From an uncultured Actinomycetota bacterium (lineage in GTDB: Bacteria > Actinomycetota > Humimicrobiia > Humimicrobiales > Humimicrobiaceae): DNA of 64,000 nt. The notes beneath the pieces were generated by a model, which saw only the letters and a list, made by a program, of their open reading frames with translations, had not been told where the DNA came from and ran no database searches. Location: assembly GCA_964616545.1 (NCBI GenBank), contig CAZTUA010000053.1, positions 15,061-79,060 of the forward strand, in the 5' to 3' direction. The position numbers and the translations under genes are program-made. Shown here one piece after another: positions 11,681 through 26,402 of the stretch (its first letter is position 1; each line of letters begins with the position of its first letter).

Positions 11681-11992
11681 TTAAAGATTTTGCCTGAATT
11701 TTATCCTTTTGACGGCATCTTCGCCAATAAAGGAGTTAATCCTTTCAACCAGCCGTGCAGACATCATATTAAGTTCATTCGCCCATGTAGAACTGGCTAC
11801 CGATACATATAAAGTATTTCTGCTTATCCTTTCAGGTTTTGTTTTTTTGCTTATTTCGCTACCTACTATTTCTTCCCAGTGGCTAAATATTTTAGAGGTT
11901 TTTAATCTTGAGCCAATATTTAAATCCTTTACCACATCATTTATTATGCTTCCTATATCCTTTATTTCTTTCATGTTTATATTATAATCCAT
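11681..11992 (-). CDS. DUF721 domain protein (RemB/YaaB-like, conserved between recF and gyrB)
   Basis: 103 aa; position between recF and gyrB is the conserved Firmicutes synteny; sequence WEEIVG..ISKKTKPERI..TLYVSVASSTWANEL matches DUF721. Confidence 0.75.
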   Translation of the reverse strand: MDYNINMKEIKDIGSIINDVVKDLNIGSRLKTSKIFSHWEEIVGSEISKKTKPERISRNTLYVSVASSTWANELNMMSARLVERINSFIGEDAVKRIKFRQNL

Positions 11993-12002
11993 CTACAGTG
12001 CT

Positions 12003-13187
12003 TTATAAATCCAGAACTGTAACCTTATTGTCTTTAACAAGCAGCCTGCTCCCGAATTCAAGATCAATCTTATCAAGATAGCTCATATTTGTAGTGGTTA
12101 CAAATGTCTGGAATTTATTCTTAACCGCTCTTACGAGTATTTTTTTTCTTTCTATGTCAAGCTCCGAAAACACATCATCCAGAAGAAGGACCGGGTCCCT
12201 TTTTATTTTTTTTCTCAATACATCCATTTCACAGAGTTTTAAACTTATTGAAGCAATTCTCTGCTGCCCCTGCGACCCGAAACATCTCACATTCTTCCCG
12301 CCAAGCAAAATTACAAAATCATCTCTGTGGGGTCCCACCCTTGTATTTTTATACTGCAGGTCCCTTTCAATGCTGTCTTTTAATTTACGGCCAAAAGTCT
12401 CTTCAAGGTTTTTAATCATTGAACTATCCCCGTCCCGGGCCTCTCTTTCAGTAAAGTCCAGAAGACTATCCGGCGCACTTTCCCTGTCCCAGCTGAAAAC
12501 ATAAAATATATCCGCGGAAGCTTCCTTAAAAAAACTTTTCATATAATTTTTGAATTCAGATTTTATTTCATTTATCAGCCTGAACCTTTTTTTCATGATA
12601 TCCGTTCCGTACTTTACCAGATTGTCATTCCACACTTCCAGGGATGAATTAATTCCTGTATCAATCTTTCCGCCGATGCTTTTAATGAGGCTGGTCCTGT
12701 GGGCAAGTATTTTCTGGTATTGCAGTCTCTGCCTGTAATAGCTCCTGTCGGTTTTTTCAAGCACGCCATCAAGAAAATTTCTCCTTTCAGACGGCCCGTA
12801 TTTTACAATCCTCATATCATCCGGAGAGAATATTACTGAAGGGAGCATTGATATAAAATCTGTTTTCTTCCTCCGGTTTATTTTATCCACTCTTATTCTT
12901 GTATTGTTGTCCTTACGTAGTTCTATCTCAATAAAATGCTCCAGCCCATCATTCTCCCCGGAGTCCACTATTGCCTTTATGAAGGAATAGCTGCTTGCCC
13001 AGTTAATAATTTCATCCTGGGTGTAAGTTCTGTGAGACCTGCCTGTGGACAGGTAATGTATGGATTCCAGCAGATTTGTCTTGCCATCTCCATTATTTCC
13101 AAGAATCAAAACGGTATTTTTATCAAAATTTAAATTGATATGATGGTAATTTCTGTAATTTTTTAATTCTAATTTTTTTAAATACAC
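12003..13187 (-). CDS. recF: DNA replication and repair protein RecF
   Basis: 394 aa; N-terminal Walker A GNNGDGKTNLLESI, SMC-like signature and Walker B LLLDDVFSELD. Confidence 0.9.
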   Translation of the reverse strand: MYLKKLELKNYRNYHHINLNFDKNTVLILGNNGDGKTNLLESIHYLSTGRSHRTYTQDEIINWASSYSFIKAIVDSGENDGLEHFIEIELRKDNNTRIRVDKINRRKKTDFISMLPSVIFSPDDMRIVKYGPSERRNFLDGVLEKTDRSYYRQRLQYQKILAHRTSLIKSIGGKIDTGINSSLEVWNDNLVKYGTDIMKKRFRLINEIKSEFKNYMKSFFKEASADIFYVFSWDRESAPDSLLDFTEREARDGDSSMIKNLEETFGRKLKDSIERDLQYKNTRVGPHRDDFVILLGGKNVRCFGSQGQQRIASISLKLCEMDVLRKKIKRDPVLLLDDVFSELDIERKKILVRAVKNKFQTFVTTTNMSYLDKIDLEFGSRLLVKDNKVTVLDL

Positions 13188-13438
13188 AATATTAAATATA
13201 GCATAAAATATATACTTTCTGCCTTAAATAATTTTTGTTCCGCCGGCAAAGCCGCATCGTTGCAGATTATTAATCATCAATTACTACCGGCCAGCAAATT
13301 TTTTTAAACAGACTATATTAAACCCGCGGTACGGCAACCTTGATTCTTATCTTTTAACTTTCTATTAATAATATCATTTATAGATTAAAAATTTAATTTT
13401 ACAGAGCGCTTATTTTGTTACAATTATTATAAATATTC

Positions 13439-13447
13439 TGTTATAAT
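13439..13447 (+). promoter_or_regulatory. Candidate extended -10 promoter (TGtTATAAT) for the formate dehydrogenase operon
   Basis: ctgTTATAAT ~70 nt upstream of the NuoE-like gene ATG; no good -35, consistent with extended -10 class. Confidence 0.3.
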
Positions 13448-13518
13448 TTTTGAAAACAAACCGGGAAAGTTTAAGTGTTTTAAAAAATTTTCTCTGTTTA
13501 AAAAGGAAAAACTATACT

Positions 13519-14019
13519 ATGGCAATAAGGATTTCTGATTTACCGGAATATAGATTAAAAACAGAAGAAATAAAAAAAATTAACAGCATAATACAGAAAA
13601 ATCGCGGCAAAAAAGAAGCTTTAATTCCGGTACTACAGAAAATACAGAAAGATGTTGGCTTCTTATCTGTAGAAACTCAGAAAAAGGTAGCAGATGCTTT
13701 AGAGCTTCCTGAAAAGGATGTTTACGGAGTAGTGACTTTCTACTCATTCTTTTCAATGACTCCAAGAGGAAAGAATAATATAAGAGTCTGCCTTGGGACT
13801 GCATGTTTTGTAAAAGGCGGTAAAAAAATATTAGATAAGATAATAAGAGAATTAAAAATCAAACCGGGCCAGACCACCTCCGATAGAATATATACCCTGC
13901 AGGTTAATCGTTGTCTTGGAGCATGCGGACTTGCTCCAATAGTTGTGATAAATGATAAAATTTTTCAGAAGGTAAATCCTGAAAAAGTTATGGATATAAT
14001 ATATTCTTATAAAAAATAA
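13519..14019 (+). CDS. NuoE-like thioredoxin-fold [2Fe-2S] subunit (FdsG/HndA-type)
   Basis: Cys motifs CLGTAC and CLGACGLAP; ALIPVLQKIQ N-terminal NuoE block; ATG at 13519 chosen over upstream in-frame TTG at 13450 because the latter overlaps the putative promoter. Confidence 0.75.
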   Translation: MAIRISDLPEYRLKTEEIKKINSIIQKNRGKKEALIPVLQKIQKDVGFLSVETQKKVADALELPEKDVYGVVTFYSFFSMTPRGKNNIRVCLGTACFVKGGKKILDKIIRELKIKPGQTTSDRIYTLQVNRCLGACGLAPIVVINDKIFQKVNPEKVMDIIYSYKK

Positions 14020-14074
14020 AAAATATTCTTTTAAATTACCCTGATATCCGGGCTTTAAAAAGAAGAGGTTTAAT

Positions 14075-15790
14075 TTGTTGAATAAGAAACCGATAAAAAT
14101 AAAAACAAAAGATGATCTTTTTAAAATAAAGAAAGAAACAACTAAAAAAAAGAATCTGAGCTCTTCAGGAACAGGATACAGAATAACGGTACACCTTGGA
14201 ACATGCGGTATCGCTTCAGGTGCTGATATTATAAAAGACCGGGTAAAAAAAGAACTAAATTTAAGAAATAAAAGTAGCATTGATTTTACCACTTCCGGAT
14301 GTGTGGGATTCTGTGCCCTGGAGCCGATGTTAACCATTGAATCATACCATATGGGGCCTGTTATTTATCATAGCCTTGATAAAGATAAAGTTAAAAGGAT
14401 CTTTAATGCACACATAGACAATGGAAAAATACTGGAAGAACTTGAACCCATAACAGAAGATTCCCCGCTCTCAAACTTTTATAAATACCAGGAATCCCGT
14501 GTTTTAAGAAACAGGGGGAAAATAGACCCCTTTAAAATTGAAGATTATATCACAAATGATGGATATCTCGCGCTCGCAAAAGTTATTGAGAGCGGCAGTC
14601 CTGAAAGAATAGTAAAAACTATTTCAGAATCAGGCCTTCGCGGCCGGGGAGGAGCAGGCTTTCCCACGGGAGCCAAGTGGGAGTTCTGCAGAAAGGCTCA
14701 ATCAAAAAATGGAGTTAAATATGTAATATGTAACGGTGACGAAGGGGACCCCGGTGCTTTCATGGACAGGAACCTGCTTGAATCAGATCCGCATTCTATC
14801 CTTGAAGGAATGATTATTGCAGCTTATTCAATTGGTTCAAATAAAGGTTATCTTTATATAAGAGCGGAATACCCTCTTGCAGTAAAAACAATGAAGCATG
14901 CAATAAGTCAGGCAAAAAATTATGGCCTTATAGGGAAAAATATACTGAACAGCGGCTTTAATTTTGAAGTTGAAATATATGAGGGCGCAGGAGCATTTGT
15001 ATGCGGCGAAGAAACCGCACTTATAAATTCAATTGAAGGTAAAAGAGGCATGCCCAGACCCAAACCTCCTTATCCTGCAAATGAAGGACTTTTTGGAGAG
15101 CCTACTCTTATAAATAATGTTGAAACCCTATCAAATATCCCACAGATAATCCTGAAGGGAGCTAAATGGTTCAGCAGCATCGGGACTGAAACAAGTAAAG
15201 GAACCAAAATATTTGCTCTTGCAGGAGCTGTTAAAAATGTGGGTCTGGTTGAAGTTCCTATGGGAATGACCTTAAGGGATATCATTTATAAAATTGGAGG
15301 TGGGATACCTGAGGGAAAAAATTTTAAAGCAGCGCAGTTCGGGGGGCCATCGGGAGGATGCATACCCCGCAAATTTTTAGATATACCTATTGATTACGAA
15401 AAAATAAAAGAGGCAGGTTCTATTATGGGCTCCGGCGGGATGATAGTTATTGATGAAGAAACCTGTATGGTAAACCTTGCAAGGTATTTTATGGATTTTA
15501 TTCAGGATGAATCATGCGGCCAGTGTGTCCCATGCAGAATAGGGACCAGAAGAATGCTGGAAATTTTAGAGAAAATAACACAGGGCAAGGGCAGTGAAGA
15601 CAGTATTGAAAAACTTGAAAAATTATCAGCTGTTATTAAAGAAACTTCTCTCTGTGGATTGGGAAAAACCGCCCCAAATCCTGTAATGAGCACTATAAAA
15701 TATTTTAGAGAAGAATTTGAAGAACATATCAGAACCCAAAAATCATGCAAAAGGCTTCATGCAAAAAAAGAAAAAAGTATAAAAACATAA
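14075..15790 (+). CDS. NuoF-like NAD(H)/FMN-binding subunit with N-terminal [2Fe-2S] domain (FdsB/HndC-type)
   Basis: 571 aa; GRGGAGFPTGAKW FMN/NADH site, ESCGQCVPCR 4Fe-4S motif; apparent TTG start after AGAAGAGG RBS; lacks C-terminal 2x[4Fe-4S] ferredoxin extension. Confidence 0.8.
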   Translation: MLNKKPIKIKTKDDLFKIKKETTKKKNLSSSGTGYRITVHLGTCGIASGADIIKDRVKKELNLRNKSSIDFTTSGCVGFCALEPMLTIESYHMGPVIYHSLDKDKVKRIFNAHIDNGKILEELEPITEDSPLSNFYKYQESRVLRNRGKIDPFKIEDYITNDGYLALAKVIESGSPERIVKTISESGLRGRGGAGFPTGAKWEFCRKAQSKNGVKYVICNGDEGDPGAFMDRNLLESDPHSILEGMIIAAYSIGSNKGYLYIRAEYPLAVKTMKHAISQAKNYGLIGKNILNSGFNFEVEIYEGAGAFVCGEETALINSIEGKRGMPRPKPPYPANEGLFGEPTLINNVETLSNIPQIILKGAKWFSSIGTETSKGTKIFALAGAVKNVGLVEVPMGMTLRDIIYKIGGGIPEGKNFKAAQFGGPSGGCIPRKFLDIPIDYEKIKEAGSIMGSGGMIVIDEETCMVNLARYFMDFIQDESCGQCVPCRIGTRRMLEILEKITQGKGSEDSIEKLEKLSAVIKETSLCGLGKTAPNPVMSTIKYFREEFEEHIRTQKSCKRLHAKKEKSIKT

Positions 15791-15808
15791 ATTCTATTTT
15801 TATAAGAT

Positions 15809-18511
15809 ATGAAAAATTCAAGTAATAAAATAAAAATTACCATTAACAGCAAACCCTATTACTGCTCGCCGGGATGCAGTGTTCTTGAAGCCTGTCTTGA
15901 GAATAATATTTTTGTTCCCCACCTGTGCTATGACCCGAGACTCAAATCTCAGGGAGCATGCAGGCTCTGCGTTGTTGAGATAGAAGGAATGCCGGAAGCA
16001 GCTGCTTCGTGTGTAACACAGGTAAGAGAAGGAATGAAAGTCAGGACAGACACCCCCCGCATAAGAGAGCTCGTAAAAACAAATCTTGAGCTGATAATAT
16101 CAGACCATCCTCTTGATTGCATGACCTGTGAGTCATCAGGAGATTGCATGCTGCAGGACCTTGCTTATATTTATGGCATTAAAGAAGTTCCATATAAGGG
16201 GAAAATCCATGAAAAGAAAGTTCTTGAAGATAATCCCTTTATACTAAGAGATAACCAGAAATGCATACTCTGCGGCAGATGTGTAAGAATGTGTGATGAA
16301 ATTGTGGGAGCCAGCGCCATTGGTTATGCCGGTAGGGGCTTTGAGAGTGAAATAGTTCCCGCATTTGAACAATCATTAAAAGAAACAGACTGTGTATTCT
16401 GCGGTAATTGCATCTCAACCTGCCCATCCGGCGCACTGCAGTCAAAACCTTACGCTGGCAAAGCCCGCATCTCCGGAACAGAAAAAATTCAGACCGTCTG
16501 CCCCTACTGCGGAGTGGGCTGTATAATTGATCTACATATCAGGAATAATAAAATTGTAAATGTAACCTCGGAAGTAGGAAAACATGTAAATAAAGGCAGT
16601 CTCTGCGTTAAAGGAAAATTCGGGCATGAATTTGTAGACAGCCCGGAAAGGCTTAAAGATCCCCTGATAAAAACACGGGACAGCGGATTTAAAAAAATAA
16701 GCTGGGAGAAAGCAATAGAAACTGTTTCGGACAGGCTGAGGACAATAAAGGATAAATACGGACCTGACTCTGTTGCTGTTTTAAGCTCTGCGAAGTGTAC
16801 AAATGAAGAAAATTTTTTAATGTCTAAATTAGCCCGGGCTGCAATCGGGACCAACAACATAGACCACTGCGCCCGCCTCTGCCATGCATCAACAATCACC
16901 GGTCTGGTGCAAACTTTTGGAAGCGGAGCAATGACAAATTCAATTGAGGATATAAAATGCGCTGATGCTGCTATAATAATCGGTTCAAATACAACGGAAG
17001 CTCACCCTGTGATAGGATATGAGATTATAAGGTGTGTTCAGGAAAATGGACTGAAACTTATCGTAATAGACCCGAGAAATATTCCCATAACAAAATATGC
17101 AGCTGTTCACCTGAGGCAAAAACCTGGAACTGATACTGCTGTTATTCTGGGAATTATAAAACTTATCTATGAGAACAATCTGCATGATAAAAATTTTATT
17201 GAAACAAGAACTGAACTTTTTGATGATTTTATAAAATGTTTTTCATCGTATACCCCCGAAAAAGTAGCAAAAATCTCCGGAGTTAACATTGCAGATCTTG
17301 TAAAGGCCGCGGATATTTATGGATCAGCAGAGAATGCTTCCATATTTTATGCAATGGGAATCACCCAGCATACATCCGGCACAGATAATGTCGTAGCCCT
17401 TGCAGACCTTGCGCTGCTTACCGGTAATATTGGCAGAAAAGGTACGGGTGTTAATCCATTGAGAGGCCAGAATAATGTACAGGGTGCATGTGATATGGGT
17501 GCGCTGCCGGACCTGCTGAGCGGTTATCAGAGTATTGAAAATGACGAATTGAGGTTGAAATTTGAAAATAAATGGTCAGTGAGTTTACCTGCTAAAAAGG
17601 GTCTGACCGTAACCGAGATCATTGACGGGGCATATTCGGGCAGCATTAAAGCTCTTTATATAATGGGCGAAAATATAATGCTCAGTGACCCTGATTTATT
17701 ACATGTGGCCGCAGCCCTGAAGAAACTTGAATTCCTGGTTGTCCAGGATATTTTCCTGACAGAAACGGGAGAGTTTGCCGATATTGTCCTGCCTGGAGCA
17801 TGTTTTGCAGAAAAAGACGGTACATTCACAAATACAGACAGGAGAATCCAGAGAGTCAGAAAAGCCATTGAGCCTCCAGGTAATTCTATGGCTGACTGGG
17901 AAATTATCAGTATGCTCTCAAACCGCATGGGTTATCCTATGAGCTATAACCACCCTTCGGAGATTATGGATGAAATTGCTTCTCTTACGCCAATATACGG
18001 AGGTATAAATTATAGTAGAATTGATATTGAAGCTTTACAATGGCCCTGCAGGAACTATAGTGACACAGGAACAGATATTCTTCATGTAGATAATTTTACA
18101 AGAGGCAGAGGTAGATTTATTCCCTTCGGGTATTCCCCTCCTGCTGAGACCCCGACCGGTGATTACCCCTTTATTCTTACTACCGGAAGAATTTTATACC
18201 ATTTCCACACCAGAACGATGACCGGCAGGGTTAGCGGTTTAAATGAAATTGCCCCGATAAATCTTGTCCAGATAAATGAAGATGATGCAAAAAGTCTTAA
18301 AATTAAAAGCGGAGATACCGTGGAAGTTAGCTCAAAAAGGGGAAAAATTACTGTATCATCACTGGTAAGTCCGAAAATAAAAAAAGGAGTTGTATTTATA
18401 CCGTTTCATTATGCAAGCTCTCCTGCCAATCTCCTGACCAACCCGGCTCTGGACCCCAGAGCAAAAATACCGGAATTTAAGGCCTGTGCCGTAAATTTAA
18501 GAAAAATTTAA
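15809..18511 (+). CDS. fdhA: Formate dehydrogenase catalytic (alpha) subunit, Mo/W-bisPGD, NAD-linked FdsA/FdhA-type, cysteine variant
   Basis: 900 aa; N-terminal NuoG-like 2Fe-2S + 4Fe-4S domains, MopB domain; active-site context HCARLCHAS has Cys at the position that is Sec in selenoenzymes (no in-frame TGA). Confidence 0.85.
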   Translation: MKNSSNKIKITINSKPYYCSPGCSVLEACLENNIFVPHLCYDPRLKSQGACRLCVVEIEGMPEAAASCVTQVREGMKVRTDTPRIRELVKTNLELIISDHPLDCMTCESSGDCMLQDLAYIYGIKEVPYKGKIHEKKVLEDNPFILRDNQKCILCGRCVRMCDEIVGASAIGYAGRGFESEIVPAFEQSLKETDCVFCGNCISTCPSGALQSKPYAGKARISGTEKIQTVCPYCGVGCIIDLHIRNNKIVNVTSEVGKHVNKGSLCVKGKFGHEFVDSPERLKDPLIKTRDSGFKKISWEKAIETVSDRLRTIKDKYGPDSVAVLSSAKCTNEENFLMSKLARAAIGTNNIDHCARLCHASTITGLVQTFGSGAMTNSIEDIKCADAAIIIGSNTTEAHPVIGYEIIRCVQENGLKLIVIDPRNIPITKYAAVHLRQKPGTDTAVILGIIKLIYENNLHDKNFIETRTELFDDFIKCFSSYTPEKVAKISGVNIADLVKAADIYGSAENASIFYAMGITQHTSGTDNVVALADLALLTGNIGRKGTGVNPLRGQNNVQGACDMGALPDLLSGYQSIENDELRLKFENKWSVSLPAKKGLTVTEIIDGAYSGSIKALYIMGENIMLSDPDLLHVAAALKKLEFLVVQDIFLTETGEFADIVLPGACFAEKDGTFTNTDRRIQRVRKAIEPPGNSMADWEIISMLSNRMGYPMSYNHPSEIMDEIASLTPIYGGINYSRIDIEALQWPCRNYSDTGTDILHVDNFTRGRGRFIPFGYSPPAETPTGDYPFILTTGRILYHFHTRTMTGRVSGLNEIAPINLVQINEDDAKSLKIKSGDTVEVSSKRGKITVSSLVSPKIKKGVVFIPFHYASSPANLLTNPALDPRAKIPEFKACAVNLRKI

Positions 18512-18535
18512 AATTTATAACGGTAAAATAAAAAT

Positions 18536-19363
18536 TTGAAAAGTAAAATCCCGGACCCCGGGGAAAAAATTAAAATTCAAAAGATTAAAGCTTCCTCCGG
18601 CAGGTTAGATTTCCTTGATATTATACCCCGTGAAGTTCTCTGTTCAATTTCATTAAACAGCCATACCGTTTCCACAGTTTCATGTTCTCCTGTTAATCTA
18701 ATTGAGCTTGCTGCCGGCTACCTGATAAATAACGGTTATATCAAGAATTACTCTAATATCAAGCTTCTAAAGATTTGCAGCTATGATAGAACCGGCACAA
18801 TCGGAAGCAATGATTTATCCTTAAGAGTAGAAGTAGAAGCGGCATCAACCGGTTATGAAGGTAAACAATCCCGCAAACCTGAATCCATACTGCCAGAATG
18901 CAGCAGTATTGATGATTTTATTTCAAAAAAACGCTTAAAAAAAGTGGGAAGCAATCTCAGAGTTTCTTACAATATTATTTTAGGGTTGAATATGAAAATG
19001 GTGAACAGCCAGAAATATAAAAAAGAATTTGGAGGATTGCACAGTGCAGCTTTGTTTGATAAAGATGGAAGCCTTATAAATACCATAGAGGATATTGGAA
19101 GGCACAATTGTATTGATAAAATTGCAGGCTATATTTCTATAAAAGGCCTGCCCTCCGATAATAAGATTATATTCACTTCAGGAAGACTGAGCATTGACCT
19201 CGTATCCAAAATATGCAAAATGAAAATTCCGTTTATTATTACAAACTCATCTGTAACTTTAGGTTCCGCTATCCTTGCAAAAAAAATGAATCTAACCCTT
19301 ATCGGTTATGCACGGGGCGGCAGGTTTAATATTTATTCATCTCCACGGAGAATAACAAAGTGA
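18536..19363 (+). CDS. fdhD: Formate dehydrogenase accessory sulfurtransferase FdhD
   Basis: 275 aa; conserved GRHNCIDK motif and overall FdhD architecture; immediately downstream of fdhA. Confidence 0.8.
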   Translation: MKSKIPDPGEKIKIQKIKASSGRLDFLDIIPREVLCSISLNSHTVSTVSCSPVNLIELAAGYLINNGYIKNYSNIKLLKICSYDRTGTIGSNDLSLRVEVEAASTGYEGKQSRKPESILPECSSIDDFISKKRLKKVGSNLRVSYNIILGLNMKMVNSQKYKKEFGGLHSAALFDKDGSLINTIEDIGRHNCIDKIAGYISIKGLPSDNKIIFTSGRLSIDLVSKICKMKIPFIITNSSVTLGSAILAKKMNLTLIGYARGGRFNIYSSPRRITK

Positions 19364-20262
19364 GTTTTACTGGAATAATTCTTGCAGGCGGCAGAGGGAG
19401 CAGATTTGGCTTAGATAAATTAAAACTCAGTATTGGCAGCGTGCCGCTTATGGTAGACCAGATTTTCAAACTTAGTTTTTTTTGTGATGAAATAATAATA
19501 AGTACTTCAAACAGGCAATACCCGGTCATTTCTTCAGAAATAAGTAAAATTGATTCATATAAGAAAGAATATAATTTTGACACTATAGCTGCAGCCGTAC
19601 CAGAAAAAGAATTTAATGTTTTTATTAAAAGGATTACACAACATCCGAACATAAAAATTATTTCTGATGAATACAATTTTAAAAATACACATATAAAAAA
19701 TGTTTTAAATGTCAGAAATATTAATAGCCCTGCCGAAAGACCAAATGAGGTATATAAAGAATGCGGACCAATAATGGGCATTTATTCGGGTCTCGTAAAT
19801 GCAGCTTACTTCTATTCTATTGTTACAGCATTTGATATGCCTTTTATTTCTTATAAGCTATTAAAATTTCTTACTGATGAATCCAGAACCGATACCGGGC
19901 ATGAAGTTACCGATAGTTACAGTAAAACATATTGTTCCGCAGATAGAAGAGACGCATGCATAATTAAAGGAGAAAAGGGGTTTGAGGTACTCTGTGGATT
20001 ATACTCAAAAAACTGCACCGGTATTTTAAAAAAAAATATCGAAATGCATAAATACAAAATATCAGATATTTTTAATTATCTTAATATGGAAATAATTACG
20101 GAGAAAAAATTGAGACTACCCGGGATTGACAATCTTAATTTTTTTAATATAAACTGGTTAGAAGACTATCTTAAATTTAAAAAAATATTACAGGATAAAA
20201 AAAATATTATGGGGTCATATAATACTTTTACAGACGTCTGGAATAATTTCTTTTTTAGATAA
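19360..20262 (+). CDS. mobA: Molybdenum cofactor guanylyltransferase MobA-like protein with C-terminal extension
   Basis: N-terminus GIILAGGRGSRFGLDKL matches MobA nucleotidyltransferase fold; 300 aa is ~100 aa longer than canonical MobA; 4-bp overlap with fdhD. Confidence 0.6.
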   Translation: MSFTGIILAGGRGSRFGLDKLKLSIGSVPLMVDQIFKLSFFCDEIIISTSNRQYPVISSEISKIDSYKKEYNFDTIAAAVPEKEFNVFIKRITQHPNIKIISDEYNFKNTHIKNVLNVRNINSPAERPNEVYKECGPIMGIYSGLVNAAYFYSIVTAFDMPFISYKLLKFLTDESRTDTGHEVTDSYSKTYCSADRRDACIIKGEKGFEVLCGLYSKNCTGILKKNIEMHKYKISDIFNYLNMEIITEKKLRLPGIDNLNFFNINWLEDYLKFKKILQDKKNIMGSYNTFTDVWNNFFFR

Positions 20263-20272
20263 TTCTATTGGA

Positions 20273-20659
20273 TTAATTAAGTTCAGCAAATACCAGTATA
20301 TAGCCATTACAATCCCTGACAATAAATTCAACAGCACCGTAATCAGTTTTATAAATACCTTTTATGACTTCTACTTTATTTTTTATTCTATTATATATCT
20401 CCACAGCATTTTCTGTTTCTATATAAATAACCATGGTTCCACCGGTTTCCATATTACTAAATTCAGGAATTGACCCGGTCAGACTATCTCTTGACTGAAA
20501 CATAATATCATTGTCTTCACATGTTACCAGAGCCCACTCAAACTTACCTTTCCCGGGATTAGAGGCAACTAAATCAAAACAGCATAAAATATCCATATAA
20601 AAATCTACAGTTTTATTTACATCATCTACCATCATATTAGGCGTAATTTTTTTCAACAT
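20273..20659 (-). CDS. VOC (glyoxalase/bleomycin-resistance) family protein
   Basis: ~128 aa from ATG at 20659 (MLKKITPNMMVDDVNKTVDFY...) with VOC beta-alpha-beta pattern; upstream in-frame GTG at 20713 less likely; start uncertain. Confidence 0.5.
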   Translation of the reverse strand: MLKKITPNMMVDDVNKTVDFYMDILCCFDLVASNPGKGKFEWALVTCEDNDIMFQSRDSLTGSIPEFSNMETGGTMVIYIETENAVEIYNRIKNKVEVIKGIYKTDYGAVEFIVRDCNGYILVFAELN

Positions 20660-20705
20660 CTTACTTTTTACACCTCCTCTCGAGTTAAAGATAACCGGGG
20701 GAAGA

Positions 20706-21329
20706 TTAATCACTTACCTGTGGAATTCTCTCTATGCCATAATTTGAAGGAAATACTCCTGTCGGGCACAGGTCCATGCATTCCATGCAATTTTCACAAT
20801 ATTTAAAGTAAGCAGATTCCGGAATAAATACAACCTTTTTATCTGTTCCCCTTCCAACAAATCCTATTGCATTATTTCTCTTAACTTCCCTGCAATACCT
20901 CACGCACAGGCCGCATAGAATGCAGTAATTATTTTCCTTCCTGAATCTTGTCTCGCTTAAGCCATACTTTTTTGCCAGCTTTTTTATTTCTGGATTGAAC
21001 GGAAATAATTCAAGGTACAGTTCAACAAGATTTTTTCTTATCTGTTCTACTTTTGGACTTTCGGTATGAACTATAAGCCCTTCCTCTACCGGATAGGCAC
21101 AGGAAGCAACTATTTTCGACCTTCCATTTTTCTCTATTTCTACAATACACAGCCTGCAGGCGCCATAGGGTTTTACTTTCTCGTGATAACACAGTGCGGG
21201 AATATGAATGCCAATTTTTTTTGCTGCTTTCAGTATGGTACTATTCTTATCTACGCCGACCTTCTGGCCGTCTATATTAATATTAATTTTCTTCTTATCT
21301 GAACTCTCTTTTTTTTCATTCATAATCAT
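20706..21329 (-). CDS. NuoG N-terminal-like ferredoxin: [2Fe-2S] + multiple [4Fe-4S] binding domains, no catalytic domain
   Basis: 207 aa; CYHEKVKPYGACRLC 2Fe-2S motif, CxxCxxC.C and CENCMECMDLCP 4Fe-4S motifs; resembles the N-terminal electron-input module of FeFe hydrogenase/FdhA/NuoG. Confidence 0.7.
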   Translation of the reverse strand: MIMNEKKESSDKKKININIDGQKVGVDKNSTILKAAKKIGIHIPALCYHEKVKPYGACRLCIVEIEKNGRSKIVASCAYPVEEGLIVHTESPKVEQIRKNLVELYLELFPFNPEIKKLAKKYGLSETRFRKENNYCILCGLCVRYCREVKRNNAIGFVGRGTDKKVVFIPESAYFKYCENCMECMDLCPTGVFPSNYGIERIPQVSD

Positions 21330-21373
21330 ATTCCCCCGGTTATAAAATGTTATTAAAATATTTTTTTATGGTC

Positions 21374-23311
21374 TTACTGTCCACCAGAGTCCGCCATACC
21401 TTTTACTTCTTCTTTCACTTCCTCTTCCTCCAGACCCGAACCCGTTTTTACATCAATTGCGCTGTATTTTTCCGGACAGGCTTCAATACATGAACCGCAC
21501 TTGATGCATACTTTGCTGTCTATTGCATGCGGCTTTTTATCCTCTCCGCTTATCGCGCCTACCGGACACACCTTTACACAGCTTCCGCAGCCGGCACATT
21601 TATCAGCATTTATGACATAATTTATTAAAGGCAGACATACCTTTGCAGGACAGGTATTGTAATAAATATGTGCCTCATATTCCTCCCTAAAATACTTTAG
21701 TGTTGTAAGTACTATATTCGGGGCAGTGGCTCCCAGGGCACACATGGAAGCTTCTCTAAGCAATAATGATAAATCTGCCAGAAGTTTTAGATCCTCCTCA
21801 CGACCTTTCCCTTCCATTATTCTTTCATAGATATAAATCATCTGTCTCAGGCCCTCCCTGCAGGGAACACATTTCCCGCAGGACTCATCGGCCAAAAATT
21901 TTAAGAAATAATGGGCTACATTTACCATGCAGGAAGTTTCGTCCATTACTACCATACCCCCTGAACCCATCATTGATCCTGCTTCTGTCAGTGCATCAAA
22001 ATCTACCGGCAGGTCAAGAAGCTGCTCTGGTATTACCCCGCCAGAAGGGCCCCCGGTCTGTACCGCCTTAAATTTTTTATTATCCTTTATTCCTCCACCA
22101 ATTTTATAAATAATATCCCTCAAGGTAGCGCCCATGGGTACTTCAACCAGTCCAGTATTTTTTACCTTGCCGACAAGAGAAAATATTTTTGTACCGCTGC
22201 TTTTTTTTGTTCCGATACTTCTAAACCAGCTGAATCCATTTTTAATAATTAACGGGACATTTGCGAATGTCTCTACATTATTTAAATTGGTTGGTTTTCC
22301 CCACAGACCACTTATAGAGGTATGTATATATTTCAATCTGGGTTCTCCCACACTGCCTTCAATCGCAGCAACAAGAGCGCTTGATTCTCCTGATACATAT
22401 GAGCCTGCCCCTCTATGAATTTTTAAATCAAAATCAAACCCCGAATTTAAAATATTTTTACCTATAAATCCATATTCTTCAGCCTGTTTAATTGCTATAT
22501 TTACATTTTCCACCGTTACAGGATATTCCTGCCTGACATAAATAAATCCTTTATTAGAGCCTATGGCATATGCTCCTATTATTAATCCTTCCAGAACGCT
22601 GTGCGGATTCCCTTCCAGTATTCCTCTATCCATATAAGCACCGGGGTCACCTTCGTCAGCATTGACAATTATATATTTTGGTTCACCTTCTGCATTCCTC
22701 GTAGTCTCCCATTTAATGCCAGCCGGAAAACCTCCTCCTCCCCGGCCCCTCAGGTTAGACTTCTTAACCTCTTCAATAACTTCTTCAGGACTCATCCTCT
22801 CAAGAACCTCTGCAAGAGCCTGGTATCCTCCAATCCTTATATAATCATCAATGCTCCCTGAATCTATCTTCAGGTGGCTATCCATAAGAACTCTTTTCTG
22901 GTACTTATAAAAAGGGATATCTGATTCTTTTTTAATTGGTTCCCCATCACTATCTTTATAAAGGAGCCTTTCTACTATTTCACCTTTTAAAGTTTTCTGG
23001 ATTATCTCTGCTATATCCTCCCTTTTTACCCTCAGGTAACAGACGTCCTGCGGGTATACCACCATAATCGGCCCCATTTCGCAGTACCCGTGGCAGCCCG
23101 TTCTCCGAATAATGATTTTATCTCTGTATTTTGAATGGTTTTTATTTATTTCATCAACCATACTGCTGTAAATGTCTCCTGATGAATAAGCTTTACATCC
23201 AGGCCCGTTGCACAGAGAAAATATTATATCAGCACTTTTTAATTCATCCTGCAGCTTATCTGCTTTTTTTTGCAAATCCTTAAGAGAATTTATTTTATTG
23301 CTGTCAGCCAT
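21374..23311 (-). CDS. NuoF-like flavoprotein of the electron-bifurcating HydB type (N-terminal 2Fe-2S plus C-terminal 2x[4Fe-4S])
   Basis: 645 aa; GRGGGGFPAGIKW, ESCGKCVPCR, plus N-terminal CNGPGC..GCHGYCEMGP and C-terminal CAGCGSCVKVCP / CIKCGSCIEACP ferredoxin motifs. Confidence 0.8.
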   Translation of the reverse strand: MADSNKINSLKDLQKKADKLQDELKSADIIFSLCNGPGCKAYSSGDIYSSMVDEINKNHSKYRDKIIIRRTGCHGYCEMGPIMVVYPQDVCYLRVKREDIAEIIQKTLKGEIVERLLYKDSDGEPIKKESDIPFYKYQKRVLMDSHLKIDSGSIDDYIRIGGYQALAEVLERMSPEEVIEEVKKSNLRGRGGGGFPAGIKWETTRNAEGEPKYIIVNADEGDPGAYMDRGILEGNPHSVLEGLIIGAYAIGSNKGFIYVRQEYPVTVENVNIAIKQAEEYGFIGKNILNSGFDFDLKIHRGAGSYVSGESSALVAAIEGSVGEPRLKYIHTSISGLWGKPTNLNNVETFANVPLIIKNGFSWFRSIGTKKSSGTKIFSLVGKVKNTGLVEVPMGATLRDIIYKIGGGIKDNKKFKAVQTGGPSGGVIPEQLLDLPVDFDALTEAGSMMGSGGMVVMDETSCMVNVAHYFLKFLADESCGKCVPCREGLRQMIYIYERIMEGKGREEDLKLLADLSLLLREASMCALGATAPNIVLTTLKYFREEYEAHIYYNTCPAKVCLPLINYVINADKCAGCGSCVKVCPVGAISGEDKKPHAIDSKVCIKCGSCIEACPEKYSAIDVKTGSGLEEEEVKEEVKGMADSGGQ

Positions 23312-23357
23312 TTTGAACCTTCCTCTTTATTTGTTTAAAATTCTTATATTTTTATTT

Positions 23358-24344
23358 TTAGTTAAATTGTTTTAATATTTTTTTCAATTCACCTGTAGAG
23401 GGATTGCTATAATACTTATTGCCTATCATTGCCACCGGACCCAGCGCACAGCAACCAAGACAATTAACCGTGCTTAAAGCAAACTTATAATCACCCGTGG
23501 TGTCTCCGGGTTTTATTCCCAGGATATTCACAATTCTCTGGAGCAGTTTCATTGCCCCCCTTACATGGCAGGCTGTGCCCATGCAAACTACAATTTGATT
23601 TCTGCCCTGCGGCTCCAGATTAAAATACTTATAAAAAGTAGTGATACCATAGATACTGGTAAGGGGGACGTCCAGTCTGTTGCTTATATACAGTAGAATG
23701 TGTTTTGGGAGCCACCTGTACTCGTTCTGGATATCAAGCAGTATCTGAATTAAATCACTTCTACGGTCATCATAGTTATTTATTATTTTATCTACTTTTC
23801 CAAAATCTTTTATTGCATCTTCCAATGCCCACTCCTTTTCTCTTTTTACTTTTTTTAAATCACCGAGCCATTCGGTTAGCTGACTCTGAATAGCGTTTAT
23901 TCTTTCCATATCCGCATAATTTTTCCGGGTACTTTCATAATTGAAATCTGGAGGATTTTCAGCATAAAATTCTGTATCTCTTTTAATGTTAGTTTCTTTT
24001 TTAACCTTTTGCTGTTTAATCTTCTCTTCTTTATAATCCTTACTGCGCCGGGCAATATCCAGGCCTGTTTTTATCCTATATACTGCCCTGTTATTCTCAT
24101 AACCCGCTTTTTCTATCACGCCCTCTTTTTCCAATAATTTTAAATTTCTATAAACCGTTGCCTGGCCTATTTTTGGATATTTCCTGTGCGATAATAAAAA
24201 TAGCTCTTCGGCACTTAGATTTTTGCTATTTTCCAGAAAGGTTTCCAGTAAGATTATCCGGGTCCCTGTAAGTCTTAAACCGCTGCTTTTAATCTTCTGC
24301 TTATACTTGCCGATATTTTTCTTACCGGCTTTTCGTGTACTCAT
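23358..24344 (-). CDS. Fusion protein: Fur-family winged-helix DNA-binding domain + NuoE-like [2Fe-2S] thioredoxin-fold domain
   Basis: 328 aa single ORF; residues ~20-95 GLRLTGTRIILLETF..LSAEELF..IGQATVYRNLKLLEKEGVI align with Fur DBD (E. coli GLKVTLPRLKILEVL..VSAEDLY..IGLATVYRVLNQFDDAGIV); Lys/Glu-rich linker; C-terminal half carries NuoE motifs CMGTAC and CLGCCALGP; no Fur metal-site His cluster. Confidence 0.75.
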   Translation of the reverse strand: MSTRKAGKKNIGKYKQKIKSSGLRLTGTRIILLETFLENSKNLSAEELFLLSHRKYPKIGQATVYRNLKLLEKEGVIEKAGYENNRAVYRIKTGLDIARRSKDYKEEKIKQQKVKKETNIKRDTEFYAENPPDFNYESTRKNYADMERINAIQSQLTEWLGDLKKVKREKEWALEDAIKDFGKVDKIINNYDDRRSDLIQILLDIQNEYRWLPKHILLYISNRLDVPLTSIYGITTFYKYFNLEPQGRNQIVVCMGTACHVRGAMKLLQRIVNILGIKPGDTTGDYKFALSTVNCLGCCALGPVAMIGNKYYSNPSTGELKKILKQFN

Positions 24345-24375
24345 TTTTTTAAATCTGACTGATTATATAATATTA

Positions 24376-24416
24376 GTGATAATGATAATGATTATCATTA
24401 TGATATATGATAATAC
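24376..24416. promoter_or_regulatory. Fur-box-like operator (GATAATGATAATGATTATCATTATGATATATGATAAT) in the promoter of the Fur-DBD::NuoE gene
   Basis: Seen directly: three to four overlapping GATAAT/ATTATC hexamers nearly identical to the classical Fur box GATAATGATAATCATTATC, 30-70 nt upstream of the minus-strand start codon. Confidence 0.55.
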
Positions 24417-24545
24417 TACCAGTTTTTATTTTGTCAATCTTTTTTATTTTTCGGACCAATTAAGCAGATAAGGAGAGGTTTTGTAAAAGTATAATTAGAG
24501 AGGTGCGATTTATGAAAACATTCTGTTTGCGTGGCTCCTAAAAGA

Positions 24546-25352
24546 TCAATAGATTATTACTTTCACGCCGAGCGGCAGCATCTCATACAGCCACCTGGCA
24601 TTTTCCACTTCCAGCCTGATACATCCATGGCTGGCAGGGCTTCCCAGCTTTTCGTATTCTTCCTCAATTATATTATTGTCTCCATCAAATGGGACACTGT
24701 GAAATAGATACTCATTATAAAATCTTACCCAGTGATAGGCTCCCATACTGTACTTTTTGGACCAGAAATATCCACCTTTATGTGTGGTCTTAAACTCTCC
24801 TACTGGAGTCGGCTTCTCATCCGTCCCCCCGGAGCATATCCATTCTTTTAACAGATTATCATTGTAATATATCAGAACCTTCTGGCTGCTTAGATCCACT
24901 TCTATCCTGAAATTGTCGCTGTCGCTGTAATCAACCTCTATTGTATTATCCTGAGAAGGATTATTACTTTCTTCTCTTATTTCTCCGCTGCCTGGCTGTT
25001 CCTTTTCTTCCATGATATTATCCTCTATAATTTCCTCTTCCTGATTTATTTCTTCCTCCCGATTTTTCATAGCGGTTCCACTTTCGAAATTACCTTCGCC
25101 TCCGGTTATCTCCTGTGGCTCTGGAAAAACCGGGCTTCCGGTACCGGCTACATAATCTCCTTTAAACTCTTCATTTCCTGCTGCAGAGATGTCAGTGCTG
25201 CCAATCCTGGCCGCTGCAGGCTTTCCTGTTATTATTCCGGTATTATCCGTGCATGAAATACAGATAACGCCGGCAAATATGAGAACCAGCAGGAGAATGG
25301 CTGCATTAATCCATGGCCTTATATTTCTTTTTATAAATTTAATCAATTCCAA
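24546..25352 (-). CDS. L,D-transpeptidase (YkuD domain) with N-terminal membrane anchor and Glu-rich linker
   Basis: 268 aa; catalytic HxxxxxxSHGCIRL motif near C-terminus. Confidence 0.7.
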   Translation of the reverse strand: MELIKFIKRNIRPWINAAILLLVLIFAGVICISCTDNTGIITGKPAAARIGSTDISAAGNEEFKGDYVAGTGSPVFPEPQEITGGEGNFESGTAMKNREEEINQEEEIIEDNIMEEKEQPGSGEIREESNNPSQDNTIEVDYSDSDNFRIEVDLSSQKVLIYYNDNLLKEWICSGGTDEKPTPVGEFKTTHKGGYFWSKKYSMGAYHWVRFYNEYLFHSVPFDGDNNIIEEEYEKLGSPASHGCIRLEVENARWLYEMLPLGVKVIIY

Positions 25353-25562
25353 CCACCAGTTTAAACATATTATATAATCATAGAACTCAGAAACAGATAG
25401 GTTTTATAAAAATAAGCTACTGCAACTATCAATAAATTATATAATAATCCAGAGAAACATTAAATTATATTAATAAATTTTGTCCCTGACTTTAATATTG
25501 CATTTCTAAAATGTTATAATGTAGTTTTAAAATAACATCTAAAATATTTTCCGGGCAATTTT

Positions 25563-26402
25563 ATGGCAAAAAATATTATTAAAGCAGACGGTACTGCAGA
25601 ACCTTATAACGAAGAAAAGGCAAGGTTATCTTTTTTAAAAGCCGGTGCTTCACAGAAAGTAGCCAGACGCGCCGCAAGAGAGCTTACCGGCTCAATAAAA
25701 AACAACATGACAACCACACAGATTTATGACAGAGCCCTTCACCAGCTGGAAAAGCTTGAGCCAAAATCTGCACTCAGGTATTCCCTTAAAAAAGCTATTA
25801 TGGATATGGGGCCGGAAGGGTTTGTTTTTGAGAAATATATAGCAAAAGTTTTACAGGAATATGGCTATAATGCTGAAGTTGGGCAATTCGTAAAGGGGTA
25901 TTGCATTGAGCACGAGGTTGATGTTATAGCAAAAAAAGAAGGTAAAATTTACATGATTGAGTGCAAGTACCGGAATTCGCCGGGGACAAAATCTGATGTG
26001 CAGACCGCGCTTTATCTAAACAGCAGATTTATGGATATAGAAAAAGCCTTTATAAAAAAAAATGGCATAACCGGCGGTTCTATCGAAGGCTGGCTGGTTA
26101 CCAATACAAAATGTACCTCTGACGCAAAAAAATACGCCCGCTGTGTCGGCTTAAAAATAATGGCCTGGCAATATCCTGAAGTTGAAAACCTTCAGTATTT
26201 TATAGAATCAAAAAAACTCTATCCTTTAAGCATCCTTCGTACAATTACGGGAAAACAAAAAGTAAAACTTTTTAATTCTAATATTATCCTCGTAAAAGAA
26301 CTCTTTAATTTTAAAATGGAAAGCCTTTCGGGGCTCTTATCAATAAACTACCAGAAAGCTGAGAATATTCTCCACGAATCAAAGATACTCATGCAGGATT
26401 AA
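25563..26402 (+). CDS. ATP-cone domain fused to PD-(D/E)xK (Mrr-like) restriction endonuclease-fold domain
   Basis: 279 aa; N-terminus IIKADGTAEPYNEEKARLSFLKAGAS is an ATP-cone; middle region FEKYIAKVLQEYGYNAEV..DVIAKKEGKIYMIECKYRN matches Mrr_cat D..ExK. Confidence 0.6.
   Translation: MAKNIIKADGTAEPYNEEKARLSFLKAGASQKVARRAARELTGSIKNNMTTTQIYDRALHQLEKLEPKSALRYSLKKAIMDMGPEGFVFEKYIAKVLQEYGYNAEVGQFVKGYCIEHEVDVIAKKEGKIYMIECKYRNSPGTKSDVQTALYLNSRFMDIEKAFIKKNGITGGSIEGWLVTNTKCTSDAKKYARCVGLKIMAWQYPEVENLQYFIESKKLYPLSILRTITGKQKVKLFNSNIILVKELFNFKMESLSGLLSINYQKAENILHESKILMQD

Follow-up and report, generated by a model that had tools for sequence, protein, structure and literature searches.

What is a second set of NuoE- and NuoF-like genes doing beside a formate dehydrogenase (FDH) operon that already has a set of its own? 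The question is raised by a 64,000-nt stretch (referred to here as the window, with all coordinates given as positions within it; G+C ~38%) of contig CAZTUA010000053.1, from an uncultured Actinomycetota bacterium of the Humimicrobiaceae. An operon of the order nuoE-nuoF-fdhA-fdhD-mobA lies on its plus strand, and converging on it from the minus strand is a trio of genes encoding a Fur domain::NuoE fusion, a second NuoF homolog, and a short iron-sulfur protein (Table 1). A first-pass annotation, made from the sequence letters, took the trio as a possible docking module for the catalytic subunit FdhA, making the whole a candidate electron-bifurcating FDH.

The answer favored here, at a little better than even confidence, is that these are two separate units: an NAD(H)-linked FDH, and an autoregulated BfuABC (Bfu) core whose BfuA would meet a third, mid-potential partner from the Wood-Ljungdahl pathway. 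Electron bifurcation by BfuABC complexes is central to anaerobic energy metabolism. The evidence comes from domain and cofactor-motif content, from the neighbors of the trio in related genomes, and from an operator that co-occurs with the DNA-binding domain fused to its NuoE-like subunit.

All of the genes in question are uninterrupted open reading frames (ORFs) where the first-pass annotation had placed them, and Pfam and NCBIfam profile searches bore out the domains it had named. The NuoF homologs were placed by bit scores against chains of solved structures. A scan of species-representative genomes gave 33 loci with a Fur-fused NuoE-like gene, all from Actinomycetota metagenome-assembled genomes (MAGs); neighboring ORFs of related loci (numbered with the prefix L) were clustered, and some contexts were annotated with Pfam.

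The minus-strand trio

By sequence, the three genes encode a complete, WorABC-like BfuCBA core (“Type 2”) with a short, cluster-only BfuA. It shows the features by which the BfuABC family has been defined (Schut 2022): the BfuB domains, the Zn/B2 site, and BfuC and BfuA encoded in one operon. The three genes are co-oriented, with gaps of 46 and 44 bp.

The predicted BfuB has a four-Cys N-terminal thioredoxin-like domain (site B5), an FMN/NAD(H) site, a B1 cluster motif, and two C-terminal CxxCxxCxxxCP motifs (residues 572-583 and 602-613) corresponding to B3/B4. Its putative Zn/B2 site (C461, H548, C554, C559) aligns with C438, H525, C531, and C536 of Acetomicrobium mobile HydB; the His and Cys residues of this site are not found in non-bifurcating homologs (Schut 2022, PMC9304861). 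The best match among solved structures is WorB (9mqx_B, 744 bits), followed by NiFe-HydB (724), T. kivui HydB (707), and then A. woodii HydB. Scores against every solved bifurcating BfuB fall between 637 and 744 bits, vs. ~295-370 for the non-bifurcating Nqo1 and FdsB. The hallmarks of a bifurcating BfuB/HydB subunit are all present, both the N-terminal domain and C-terminal 2x[4Fe-4S] that had been ascribed to this protein and the Zn/B2 site, and the bit scores concur.

The short BfuA (205 residues in database entries) could ligate one [2Fe-2S] cluster (C47, C58, C61, C77) and two [4Fe-4S] clusters (C136/139/142/146 and C178/181/184/188). Neither Pfam nor the Cys positions give any sign of a His-ligated cluster, an H-cluster, or a MopB or other catalytic domain, in agreement with its first description as a NuoG-N-terminal-like ferredoxin without a catalytic domain. 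“Type 2” BfuAs have clusters A1, A2, and A4, and all known cases take electrons from extra catalytic subunits (PMC9304861). The best solved match, WorA (9mqx_A, 122 bits), is missing the same cluster. Across more than 100 protein clusters BfuA is 70-88% identical, while BfuC identity drops to ~42-53%, a difference that fits constrained partner surfaces on BfuA.

BfuC is discussed below for its N-terminal domain. In its NuoE domain, the four Cys that would bind the [2Fe-2S] cluster (C254, C259, C295, C299) are invariant in 76 homologs, and a fold search with the predicted structure gave HydC, WorC, and StnA as best matches.

WorABC, from the tungsten aldehyde oxidoreductase WorABCSL of A. mobile (9MQX; a “Type 2” Bfu), is thus the best solved match for both BfuB and BfuA. 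The two systems share a short BfuA with a [2Fe-2S] and two [4Fe-4S] clusters, without the His-ligated A3 or the hydrogenase-like C-terminal domain, and a BfuB with the full set of sites (B1, Zn/B2, B3/B4, B5). They differ at the end of BfuA: the protein here stops ~19 residues past its last cluster Cys, while WorA has ~60 more residues, so that the C-terminal zinc finger and helix adaptor by which WorA recruits WorS are missing. No WorS or WorL was seen among the Pfam-scanned window genes or in the Pfam-annotated related loci. WorABCSL differs also in having neither the Fur DNA-binding domain on BfuC nor the Fur box of the operon described here.

A Pfam scan of 50 larger ORFs, across the window and 10 kb past its right end, found no hydrogenase, carbon monoxide dehydrogenase/acetyl-CoA synthase (CODH/ACS), or aldehyde oxidoreductase; over this range the trio has, as had been supposed, no catalytic partner of its own. 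The only redox protein in the scan was a rubrerythrin with a rubredoxin-like domain (55310-55810, minus strand). “Type 4” Rub-Bfu enzymes are predicted to pair with rubrerythrin (Schut 2022, PMC9304861), but this one lies 31 kb away from the trio.

Table 1. Genes and promoter elements of the two convergent units, in window coordinates.
Feature	Position	Strand	Evidence
NuoE/FdsG-like [2Fe-2S] subunit, 166 aa	13519-14019	+	PF01257 (E 5e-49); NuoE, HoxE, and FdsG NCBIfam matches
NuoF1, NuoF-like flavoprotein, 571 aa	14075-15790	+	PF01512, SLBB, PF10589; FMN/NADH site and B1 [4Fe-4S] site
FdhA, putative Mo/W-bis-MGD (molybdopterin guanine dinucleotide) catalytic subunit, 900 aa	15809-18511	+	TIGR01591, 865 bits (cut-off 666)
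FdhD, sulfurtransferase (FDH maturation)	18536-19363	+	PF02634 (E 6e-56); TIGR00129, 155 bits (cut-off 141)
MobA-like molybdenum cofactor guanylyltransferase, 300 aa	19360-20262	+	PF12804 in two stretches
Glyoxalase/VOC (vicinal oxygen chelate) gene, downstream of trio	20273-20713	-	PF00903 (E 2.5e-9)
Short BfuA, 207 aa	20706-21329	-	PF13510, Fer4_Nqo3; 12 Cys
BfuB, NuoF homolog, 645 aa	21374-23311	-	PF01512, PF10531, PF10589; Fer4 families at residues 565-615
BfuC, Fur domain::NuoE fusion, 328 aa	23358-24344	-	PF01475, residues 21-93 (E 1e-13); PF01257, residues 184-327 (E 1e-46)
Operator: two overlapping 19-bp Fur boxes, one mismatch each	24378-24402		Perfect 7-1-7 TGATAATCATTATCA
Predicted sigma-70-type promoter, TTGACA-16-TATTAT	24410-24437	-	Best match in 13000-25600 (11 of 12 positions)

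The formate dehydrogenase operon

FdhA aligns with FdsA from end to end (9wxb_B, 790 bits; 6tg9_A, 788 bits). Its predicted metal ligand is Cys358, in a CARLC358H motif aligned to the CARVCH of FdsA; RGQNN552-556 is conserved, and the gene has no in-frame TGA. The N-terminus is NuoG-like, with matches to Fer2_4, NADH-G_4Fe-4S_3, and Fer4_Nqo3 (one 2Fe-2S, one His-ligated 4Fe-4S, and two further 4Fe-4S sites). The earlier description of a Cys-type FdhA with a NuoG-like N-terminus is therefore retained.

A stretch within fdhA (16877-16935, plus strand) has a match to the selenocysteine insertion sequence model SECIS_3, well below threshold (34.4 bits, E 1e-4; gathering cut-off 63). The match begins with the codon ahead of that for Cys358, has UGC for UGA, and keeps an apical hairpin; it may be a relic of a selenocysteine-containing ancestor, or merely conserved coding sequence.

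The flavoprotein of the operon (NuoF1) had been described as having an N-terminal 2Fe-2S domain and no C-terminal ferredoxin domains. The latter part stands: Pfam finds no Fer4 domain, and the C-terminal B3/B4 domain that belongs to the definition of BfuB is missing. The former part is less certain. The N-terminus gives a partial thioredoxin-like match (E 7e-5) and has only three Cys (C44, C76, C80), a pattern also seen in solved StnC; in solved relatives the B5 position holds either a [2Fe-2S] cluster or Zn (PMC11829005), and a cluster at this position of NuoF1 is not certain. At the other end, the protein stops 13 residues past the last Cys of EEHIRTQKSC558, with fdhA starting 18 bp later, which leaves no space for a Fer4 domain. 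C558 is the first Cys of a conserved H-x5-C-x4-C motif, and also part of a partial Zn/B2 site (C464, T502, H551, C558) that NuoF1 keeps.

By its bit scores (577-666 to solved BfuB, HydB, NfnB, and StnC vs. 367-421 to FdsB and Nqo1) NuoF1 is itself of the Bfu lineage, a point missed by the first-pass annotation. Deletion of the B3/B4 domain from T. kivui HydABC abolishes bifurcation (PMC11829005), and non-bifurcating homologs are without this domain (PMC9304861). Since NuoF1 lacks it too, the FDH is predicted to be non-bifurcating, and probably exchanges electrons with NAD(H) only.

The possibility that the 571-aa NuoF1 gene is a pseudogene was considered and rejected: the corresponding protein of the related locus L016 has the same length and end, and JGI gene calls agree. 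Many 50%-identity clusters of BfuB-like relatives also end at 550-575 aa, and the short architecture is no defect. In the sibling loci L011, L018, and L019, NuoF1 continues into a ~500-residue GltD-like NAD(P)H/FAD domain with Fer4_20 (in L018, for example, a 1054-aa fusion with Fer4_20 and Pyr_redox_2, at 15437-18601 on the minus strand). This extension is absent from NuoF1 of the window and of L016; since the siblings carry it, the window protein is a derived, shortened form of a more complex flavoprotein.

Two details concern the ends of the operon. The first ORF could be extended to a TTG at 13450, and an AAGGA ribosome-binding site precedes the ATG at 13519. The NTP_transf_3 domain of the MobA-like protein is split by a ~75-residue insert, and all of its MobA NCBIfam scores are below the cut-offs.

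FdsGBA(CD) enzymes (Rhodobacter capsulatus, 6TGA; Cupriavidus necator) resemble this operon in the full-length FdsA match of FdhA, the Cys-His motif, the NuoG-like cluster domain, the accompanying NuoE-like and NuoF-like genes, and FdhD, the equivalent of FdsC. They differ in that the flavoprotein here, though without B3/B4, scores closer to solved BfuBs than to FdsB and keeps an N-terminal thioredoxin-like domain and partial Zn/B2 site, and in that the operon has mobA, with no FdsD seen. NfnABC/StnABC are similar with respect to NuoF1 (638-653 bits to StnC and NfnB), in the shared three-Cys N-terminal domain, and in having a GltD-like domain; in the sibling genomes NuoF1 is fused to such an NADPH/FAD domain together with Fer4_20. 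In NfnABC/StnABC, however, it is the A subunit that carries the GltD-like domain, and B3/B4 are retained on BfuB, while NuoF1 of the window has neither.

Neighbors of the trio in related genomes

The trio and the FDH operon are convergent, separate transcription units whose ends are 10 bp apart. They are flanked by recF, dciA, gyrB, and gyrA on one side and by a YkuD transpeptidase gene on the other. The locus recurs in identical form on metagenome contigs as long as 107 kb, and homologs come from Candidatus Hydromicrobium and Candidatus Humimicrobiaceae (Candidatus Humimicrobiia, Actinomycetota). The gene order Fur::BfuC, BfuB, short BfuA is kept in every locus that is long enough to show it (~30 Humimicrobiia genomes), while the surroundings fall into three main types.

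Type I, found in the window's clade (BfuC identity at least 57%), has YkuD, the trio, and the convergent FDH operon (n = 6: the window, L011, L014, L016, L018, and L019). Within this clade L013 is without the FDH arrangement, and L018 has lost FdhA, keeping FdhD and MobA. In type II (n = 6), the trio comes after a CODH/ACS operon, with a standalone Fur gene on the opposite strand between the two. In type III (n = 4, with L040 as a partial, rearranged fifth), genes for a standalone Fur, RACo, CooC, CdhD, CODH, and ACS come after the trio on its own strand. Three more loci have the trio followed by standalone Fur only. Among fused loci with enough flank, CODH/ACS, with RACo and CooC, adjoins the trio in ~11, vs. 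FDH in six; overall, an acs or fdh cluster is linked to it in ~19 of ~22 informative loci. CODH genes are clustered with the trio in L006, L089, L090, L091, L043, and L044, and not in the window. The last two of these are Actinomycetota loci with unfused BfuC: L043 has the trio inside an acs cluster (AcsE-CooC-[trio]-RACo-CooC), and in L044 an acs operon runs directly into NuoE-BfuB.

FDH and CODH/ACS are the two CO2-reducing enzymes of the Wood-Ljungdahl pathway. The position of the trio beside one or the other across the Humimicrobiia suggests that it serves as an NAD(H)/ferredoxin redox hub of this pathway.

The comparison also speaks against the trio as a dedicated FDH partner, an idea which its proposers had considered vulnerable to a consistent link with some other catalytic gene. 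Just such a link is found: the trio is tied to CODH/ACS in other genomes and to FDH in the window's clade only. The convergent arrangement, whose conservation had been suggested as a check, is kept in six loci of that clade, with CODH/ACS neighbors elsewhere. The upstream YkuD and ABC (ATP-binding cassette) transporter genes are conserved within the FDH clade as well, so the adjacency of trio and FDH may be inherited synteny.

The enzymes offered as analogs, HylCBA-FdhF2 (Gottschalkia acidurici) and Hyt-Fdh (Clostridium autoethanogenum), do have in common with this locus a hydrogenase-like ABC module without an H-cluster near an FDH, and a BfuB with N- and C-terminal cluster domains. The HylABC-FdhF2 analogy (Fdh-Bfu type 3) breaks down on architecture. 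The BfuA of that enzyme, HylA, is long, with clusters A1-A5, and FdhF2, a separate selenocysteine/tungsten subunit, has no NuoEF of its own (Schut 2022, PMC9304861); here BfuA is short (A1/A2/A4), a Cys-type FdhA comes with its own NuoE and NuoF, and the two units converge and are linked in a single clade only. Another parallel is Codh-Bfu of Firmicutes, predicted by Schut 2022, in which a Type 2 BfuABC lies in a CODH cluster, as the trio lies in or beside acs genes in the Actinomycetota relatives. Codh-Bfu is itself only a prediction, however; the window has no CODH nearby, and where BfuC is Fur-fused the trio is set apart from the acs genes by a Fur gene and often by a strand change.

A standalone full-length Fur gene (~151-164 aa, with CxxC motifs) adjoins the trio in L006, L007, L089, L090, and L091 and in 14 loci of the ORF clustering. 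In the clades other than the window's it is either divergent from the trio, sharing the intergenic region with the Fur box, or immediately downstream; no standalone Fur paralog was found in the window. A 3-kb contig (L026) has, at 3-2612, the C-terminal part of an FDH-type NuoF homolog without the C-terminal domain (76% identity), directly upstream of Fur::BfuC on the same strand, with no FdhA between them.

The Fur domain of BfuC and its predicted operator

The N-terminal part of BfuC has a match to PF01475 covering profile positions 2-75 of 121, and Fur NCBIfam models match as well. Residues T26, R29, A62, T63, Y65, and R66 are invariant in the 76 homologs, with a recognition-helix signature IGxATVYR; these residues correspond to T16, R19, A53, T54, Y56, and R57 of E. 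coli Fur, in or near the DNA-recognition helix. An AlphaFold model has a winged helix-turn-helix at residues 5-91 (four helices and a beta-hairpin; predicted local distance difference test, pLDDT, 81-93), disorder at residues 95-143, and a 54-residue helix (136-189) leading into the NuoE domain. According to both Pfam and the model, the dimerization and metal-sensing domain of Fur is absent. In a fold search with the whole predicted structure the NuoE domain dominated, and the N-terminal domain gave no independent match; for this reason the assignment to Fur relies on the profile matches, the invariant residues, and the predicted secondary structure.

Compared with typical Fur-family regulators, then, BfuC has the winged helix and recognition-helix signature, with the dimerization and metal-sensing domain replaced by a linker, a long helix, and a [2Fe-2S] NuoE domain. 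The likeness extends to the DNA: a perfect 7-1-7 TGATAATnATTATCA, the classical Fur consensus, lies over the predicted transcription start of the trio, a typical repressor geometry. The promoter is directly upstream of the boxes (Table 1), ~65 bp before the ATG. In a scan for 19-bp boxes with up to three mismatches, this was the only site in the 64-kb window (0.14 expected).

In all 34 fused loci that cover the upstream region, TTGACA, a -10 element, and then TGATAATCATTATCATTATCA precede the fusion gene; the Fur-box core is perfect in 19 of the 34, and the motif occurs almost nowhere else in these loci. None of 47 loci with unfused BfuC, two low-GC Actinomycetota loci included, has the box. 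It seems likely that the fused Fur domain binds DNA at its own promoter.

The promoter of the FDH operon has no Fur box. With the single site at the trio, there is no evidence of a common regulator for the two operons. An Rfam scan of 12900-25700 found no riboswitch or other RNA element, only the sub-threshold SECIS-like match mentioned above and a spurious snoRNA match.

Other N-terminal domains on BfuC

The three-gene unit (BfuC of 152-386 aa, BfuB of ~640, BfuA of ~190-240) is found as well in Chloroflexota, Desulfobacterota, Halobacteroidaceae, Pirellulales, Geobacteraceae, Bathyarchaeia, and Hecatellales. Among these, BfuCs of 230-276 aa often start with a strand-helix-helix-like motif (…FVGVRLTEEQ…LSKSELLLKGLE…), which hints at a ribbon-helix-helix fold; Pfam matches are weak (TraY, E 0.019; NikA-like, E 0.023). 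Such proteins occur among loci L042-L088 in Chloroflexota, Desulfobacterota, Halobacteroidaceae, Bathyarchaeia, and Hecatellales (e.g., L053, 1903-2625; L062, 4904-5632; L049, 9815-10531). In ~24 of the ribbon-helix-helix-like loci, from both bacteria and archaea, a palindrome GTTAAAC-N-GT(T/A)AAAC is located downstream of a TTGAC-like element and ahead of the start codon. It is absent from plain-BfuC loci, from loci with a receiver-domain fusion, and from Fur-type promoters (apart from two matches with two mismatches, far upstream).

The receiver-domain fusions (PF00072, E down to 5e-29) come from Pirellulales MAGs and one Acidobacteriota MAG (L073, L074, and L080-L084). In L074 (771-5496) the fused BfuC follows, on the same strand, a Cache/HAMP histidine kinase and a sigma-54 response regulator (by Pfam), and genes of the same sizes precede it in the other receiver-fused loci. 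Loci with plain or receiver-fused BfuC have neither the Fur box nor the GTTAAAC palindrome. That the kind of operator goes with the kind of DNA-binding domain is the best evidence for binding of the N-terminal domains to their own promoters.

Two further neighborhoods may be mentioned. In Syntrophobacteraceae (L049, 5616-9500 and 2671-5535; also L046, L050, L060, L065, and L066) a ribbon-helix-helix trio is divergent from genes for a 1294-aa pyruvate:ferredoxin oxidoreductase and a pyruvate phosphate dikinase-like protein; this single-chain oxidoreductase neighborhood fits the predicted Por-Bfu class. A Chloroflexia MAG (L057, ~13800-19700) has a short-A trio, then three genes on the same strand with FdhA-like or NuoG-like regions, with GltD-like segments at two places.

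Possible functions of the trio

On the reading favored here, the nuoE-nuoF-fdhA-fdhD-mobA operon would supply a cytoplasmic, Cys-type Mo/W FDH passing electrons to or from NAD(H) through its own flavoprotein. In the separate Bfu core, BfuB would bind NAD(H) at its FMN and reduce or oxidize ferredoxin through B3/B4, BfuC would carry the gating [2Fe-2S] cluster, and the short BfuA would act as a three-cluster wire, exchanging mid-potential electrons with a partner encoded elsewhere. The trio would then be an NAD(H)/ferredoxin hub of the Wood-Ljungdahl pathway, with CODH/ACS as neighbor in most Humimicrobiia lineages and FDH in that of the window. Since BfuC has a Fur DNA-binding domain and a canonical Fur box overlaps the predicted transcription start, the operon may be repressed there, whether by its own BfuC, a Fur paralog, or the two together.

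Several points weigh against parts of this reading. Bifurcation by the trio is read from homology, and NAD(H) and ferredoxin sites alone cannot bifurcate; no third partner was found in the window. BfuB has Met499 at the position of C476 in A. mobile HydB, where other BfuBs have Thr or Cys (Thr in two-thirds of them; Schut 2022, PMC9304861). Neither in the window nor in Fur-fused loci of type II is the trio co-transcribed with Wood-Ljungdahl genes, being divergent or convergent, and L013, L023, and L028 have no Wood-Ljungdahl gene within the available flanks. A housekeeping Fur alone, rather than the fused domain, might bind the box, which would then signify iron control. As for the FDH, a Bfu-type flavoprotein without the C-terminal domain might meet ferredoxin in some way that has yet to be described.

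The docking of BfuA, by its exposed clusters, onto the NuoG-like domain of FdhA, to give a bifurcating or confurcating formate:NAD+/ferredoxin enzyme in the window's clade, seems unlikely, although much in the locus invites it. The two ends are just 10 bp apart, an arrangement held in six related genomes with BfuC identity down to 59%; the trio is complete for bifurcation except for a catalytic partner, and the FDH flavoprotein without a ferredoxin-side domain makes the two sets look complementary. Formate, at ~-430 mV, would suit as the mid-potential third substrate, characterized Fdh-Bfu enzymes exist (Schut 2022, PMC9304861), and in L057 FdhA-like catalytic genes do follow a short-A trio on the same strand. 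The units are nonetheless convergent, with separate promoters and the Fur box on the trio only, and the FDH operon already supplies FdhA with a cognate NuoE and NuoF. Beyond the window's clade the trio keeps company with CODH/ACS instead, and even inside it L018 has the trio beside FdhD and MobA without FdhA, and L013 the trio without FDH. The shared synteny of YkuD and the ABC transporter adds that adjacency may be inherited rather than selected. A very different view makes the trio chiefly a regulator, sensing NADH/ferredoxin poise or iron-sulfur status, with electron transfer as the signal and no metabolic flux. Three modules (Fur winged helix, ribbon-helix-helix-like, and receiver) are fused to BfuC specifically in short-A trios; operator type co-varies with DNA-binding-domain type; the receiver-fused versions follow a histidine kinase and sigma-54 response regulator; many trios have no catalytic neighbor, such as that of L042, between SecA and UDG (uracil-DNA glycosylase)/RNase J; and the cluster domain of BfuC is the mobile, conformation-switching element of solved Bfu enzymes (PMC11829005). 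We consider it improbable all the same that regulation is the main function: all cofactor motifs are kept and BfuA and BfuB are very strongly conserved, as for an active enzyme, while unfused versions sit inside acs operons like ordinary subunits. In loci of 10-20 kb, moreover, the operator occurs only at the trio's own promoter, which fits simple autoregulation better than a regulon.

Least credible in our view, and very doubtful, is a standalone, non-bifurcating NADH:ferredoxin (or flavodoxin) oxidoreductase under Fur and iron control, with no third partner and with incidental neighbors. It would account for the lack of a catalytic subunit encoded with the trio in the window, for a BfuA ending ~19 residues past its last cluster Cys without the zinc finger and helix adaptor of WorA, for a canonical Fur box (as expected of an iron-regulon member), and for a flavodoxin gene a few genes downstream in L007. 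It sits badly with the acs or fdh link in ~19 of ~22 informative loci, which is hard to call incidental, and with a conserved BfuA whose surface-exposed terminal cluster makes little sense without a partner. A complex with ~26 iron atoms would be an odd target for derepression in iron starvation, and the absence of the Fur box from all unfused trios links the box with the fused domain, not with iron control in general. The two-unit reading, with its Wood-Ljungdahl partner, is kept as the working one. There is also a broader proposal, which we would put at rather less than even: that short-A BfuABC complexes are widespread DNA-binding “trigger enzymes” with redox- or cofactor-responsive promoter control, an NAD(H)-driven conformational switch or the state of a cluster being read out as promoter occupancy. 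If so, transcription of the module, and perhaps of co-transcribed downstream Wood-Ljungdahl genes, would be coupled to the NADH/ferredoxin poise or iron-sulfur status of the cell.

Relation to known systems

The Bfu family, Type 2 BfuA, and Bfu clades without a function are already known (PMC9304861), many of these clades having no assigned third substrate (Schut 2022, PMC9304861); FdsGBA-type enzymes are also known. What appears to be new is the fusion of a Fur domain to BfuC together with a Fur box conserved throughout, the parallel fusions of ribbon-helix-helix-like and receiver domains, and the association of the trio with acs and fdh clusters in the Humimicrobiia. Searches of the literature turned up no DNA-binding BfuC, NuoE, or HydC, no Fur-NuoE fusion, and no other DNA-binding domain on a bifurcating enzyme with a perfectly conserved cognate operator. 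Schut 2022 (PMC9304861) mentions neither Actinobacteria nor regulatory fusions, and the trio is not discussed by Merino 2020.

An orphan Bfu trio tied to the Wood-Ljungdahl pathway of uncultured Actinomycetota can be nominated as the NADH/ferredoxin balancer of these putative acetogens. The Fur::BfuC protein and its operator offer a case, open to direct test, of an enzyme complex that would control its own promoter; a second, unrelated pair of domain and operator is present in other phyla, and the operator motifs could be used to search metagenomes for such modules and their regulons. The FDH, for its part, is most likely an ordinary NAD-linked enzyme, and gene adjacency alone is no ground for calling it bifurcating.

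Other features of the window

Between the two sets lies a glyoxalase/VOC gene that the first-pass annotation had passed over; it may be co-transcribed with the trio but is not conserved with it, L016 being the one related locus that has it. Adjoining the FDH operon on its other side are gyrA, gyrB, a dciA-like gene, and recF (7064-13187, minus strand), with no dnaN or dnaA adjacent; this set is usual near chromosomal origins. A tRNA-Ala(TGC) and tRNA-Ile(GAT) pair, of a kind typical of rRNA operon spacers, is found at 5585-5751 (minus strand), in a region (5478-6457) without a large ORF, and a DUF3786 protein is encoded at 2963-3556 (minus strand). Beyond the trio, at 28939-36963, is a cluster for hexuronate/2-keto-3-deoxygluconate (KDG) catabolism, comprising KduI, a short-chain dehydrogenase, 2-keto-3-deoxy-6-phosphogluconate (KDPG) aldolase, a PfkB kinase, the TRAP (tripartite ATP-independent periplasmic) transporter DctPQM, and an IclR regulator. 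Evidently, the organism ferments sugar acids as well.

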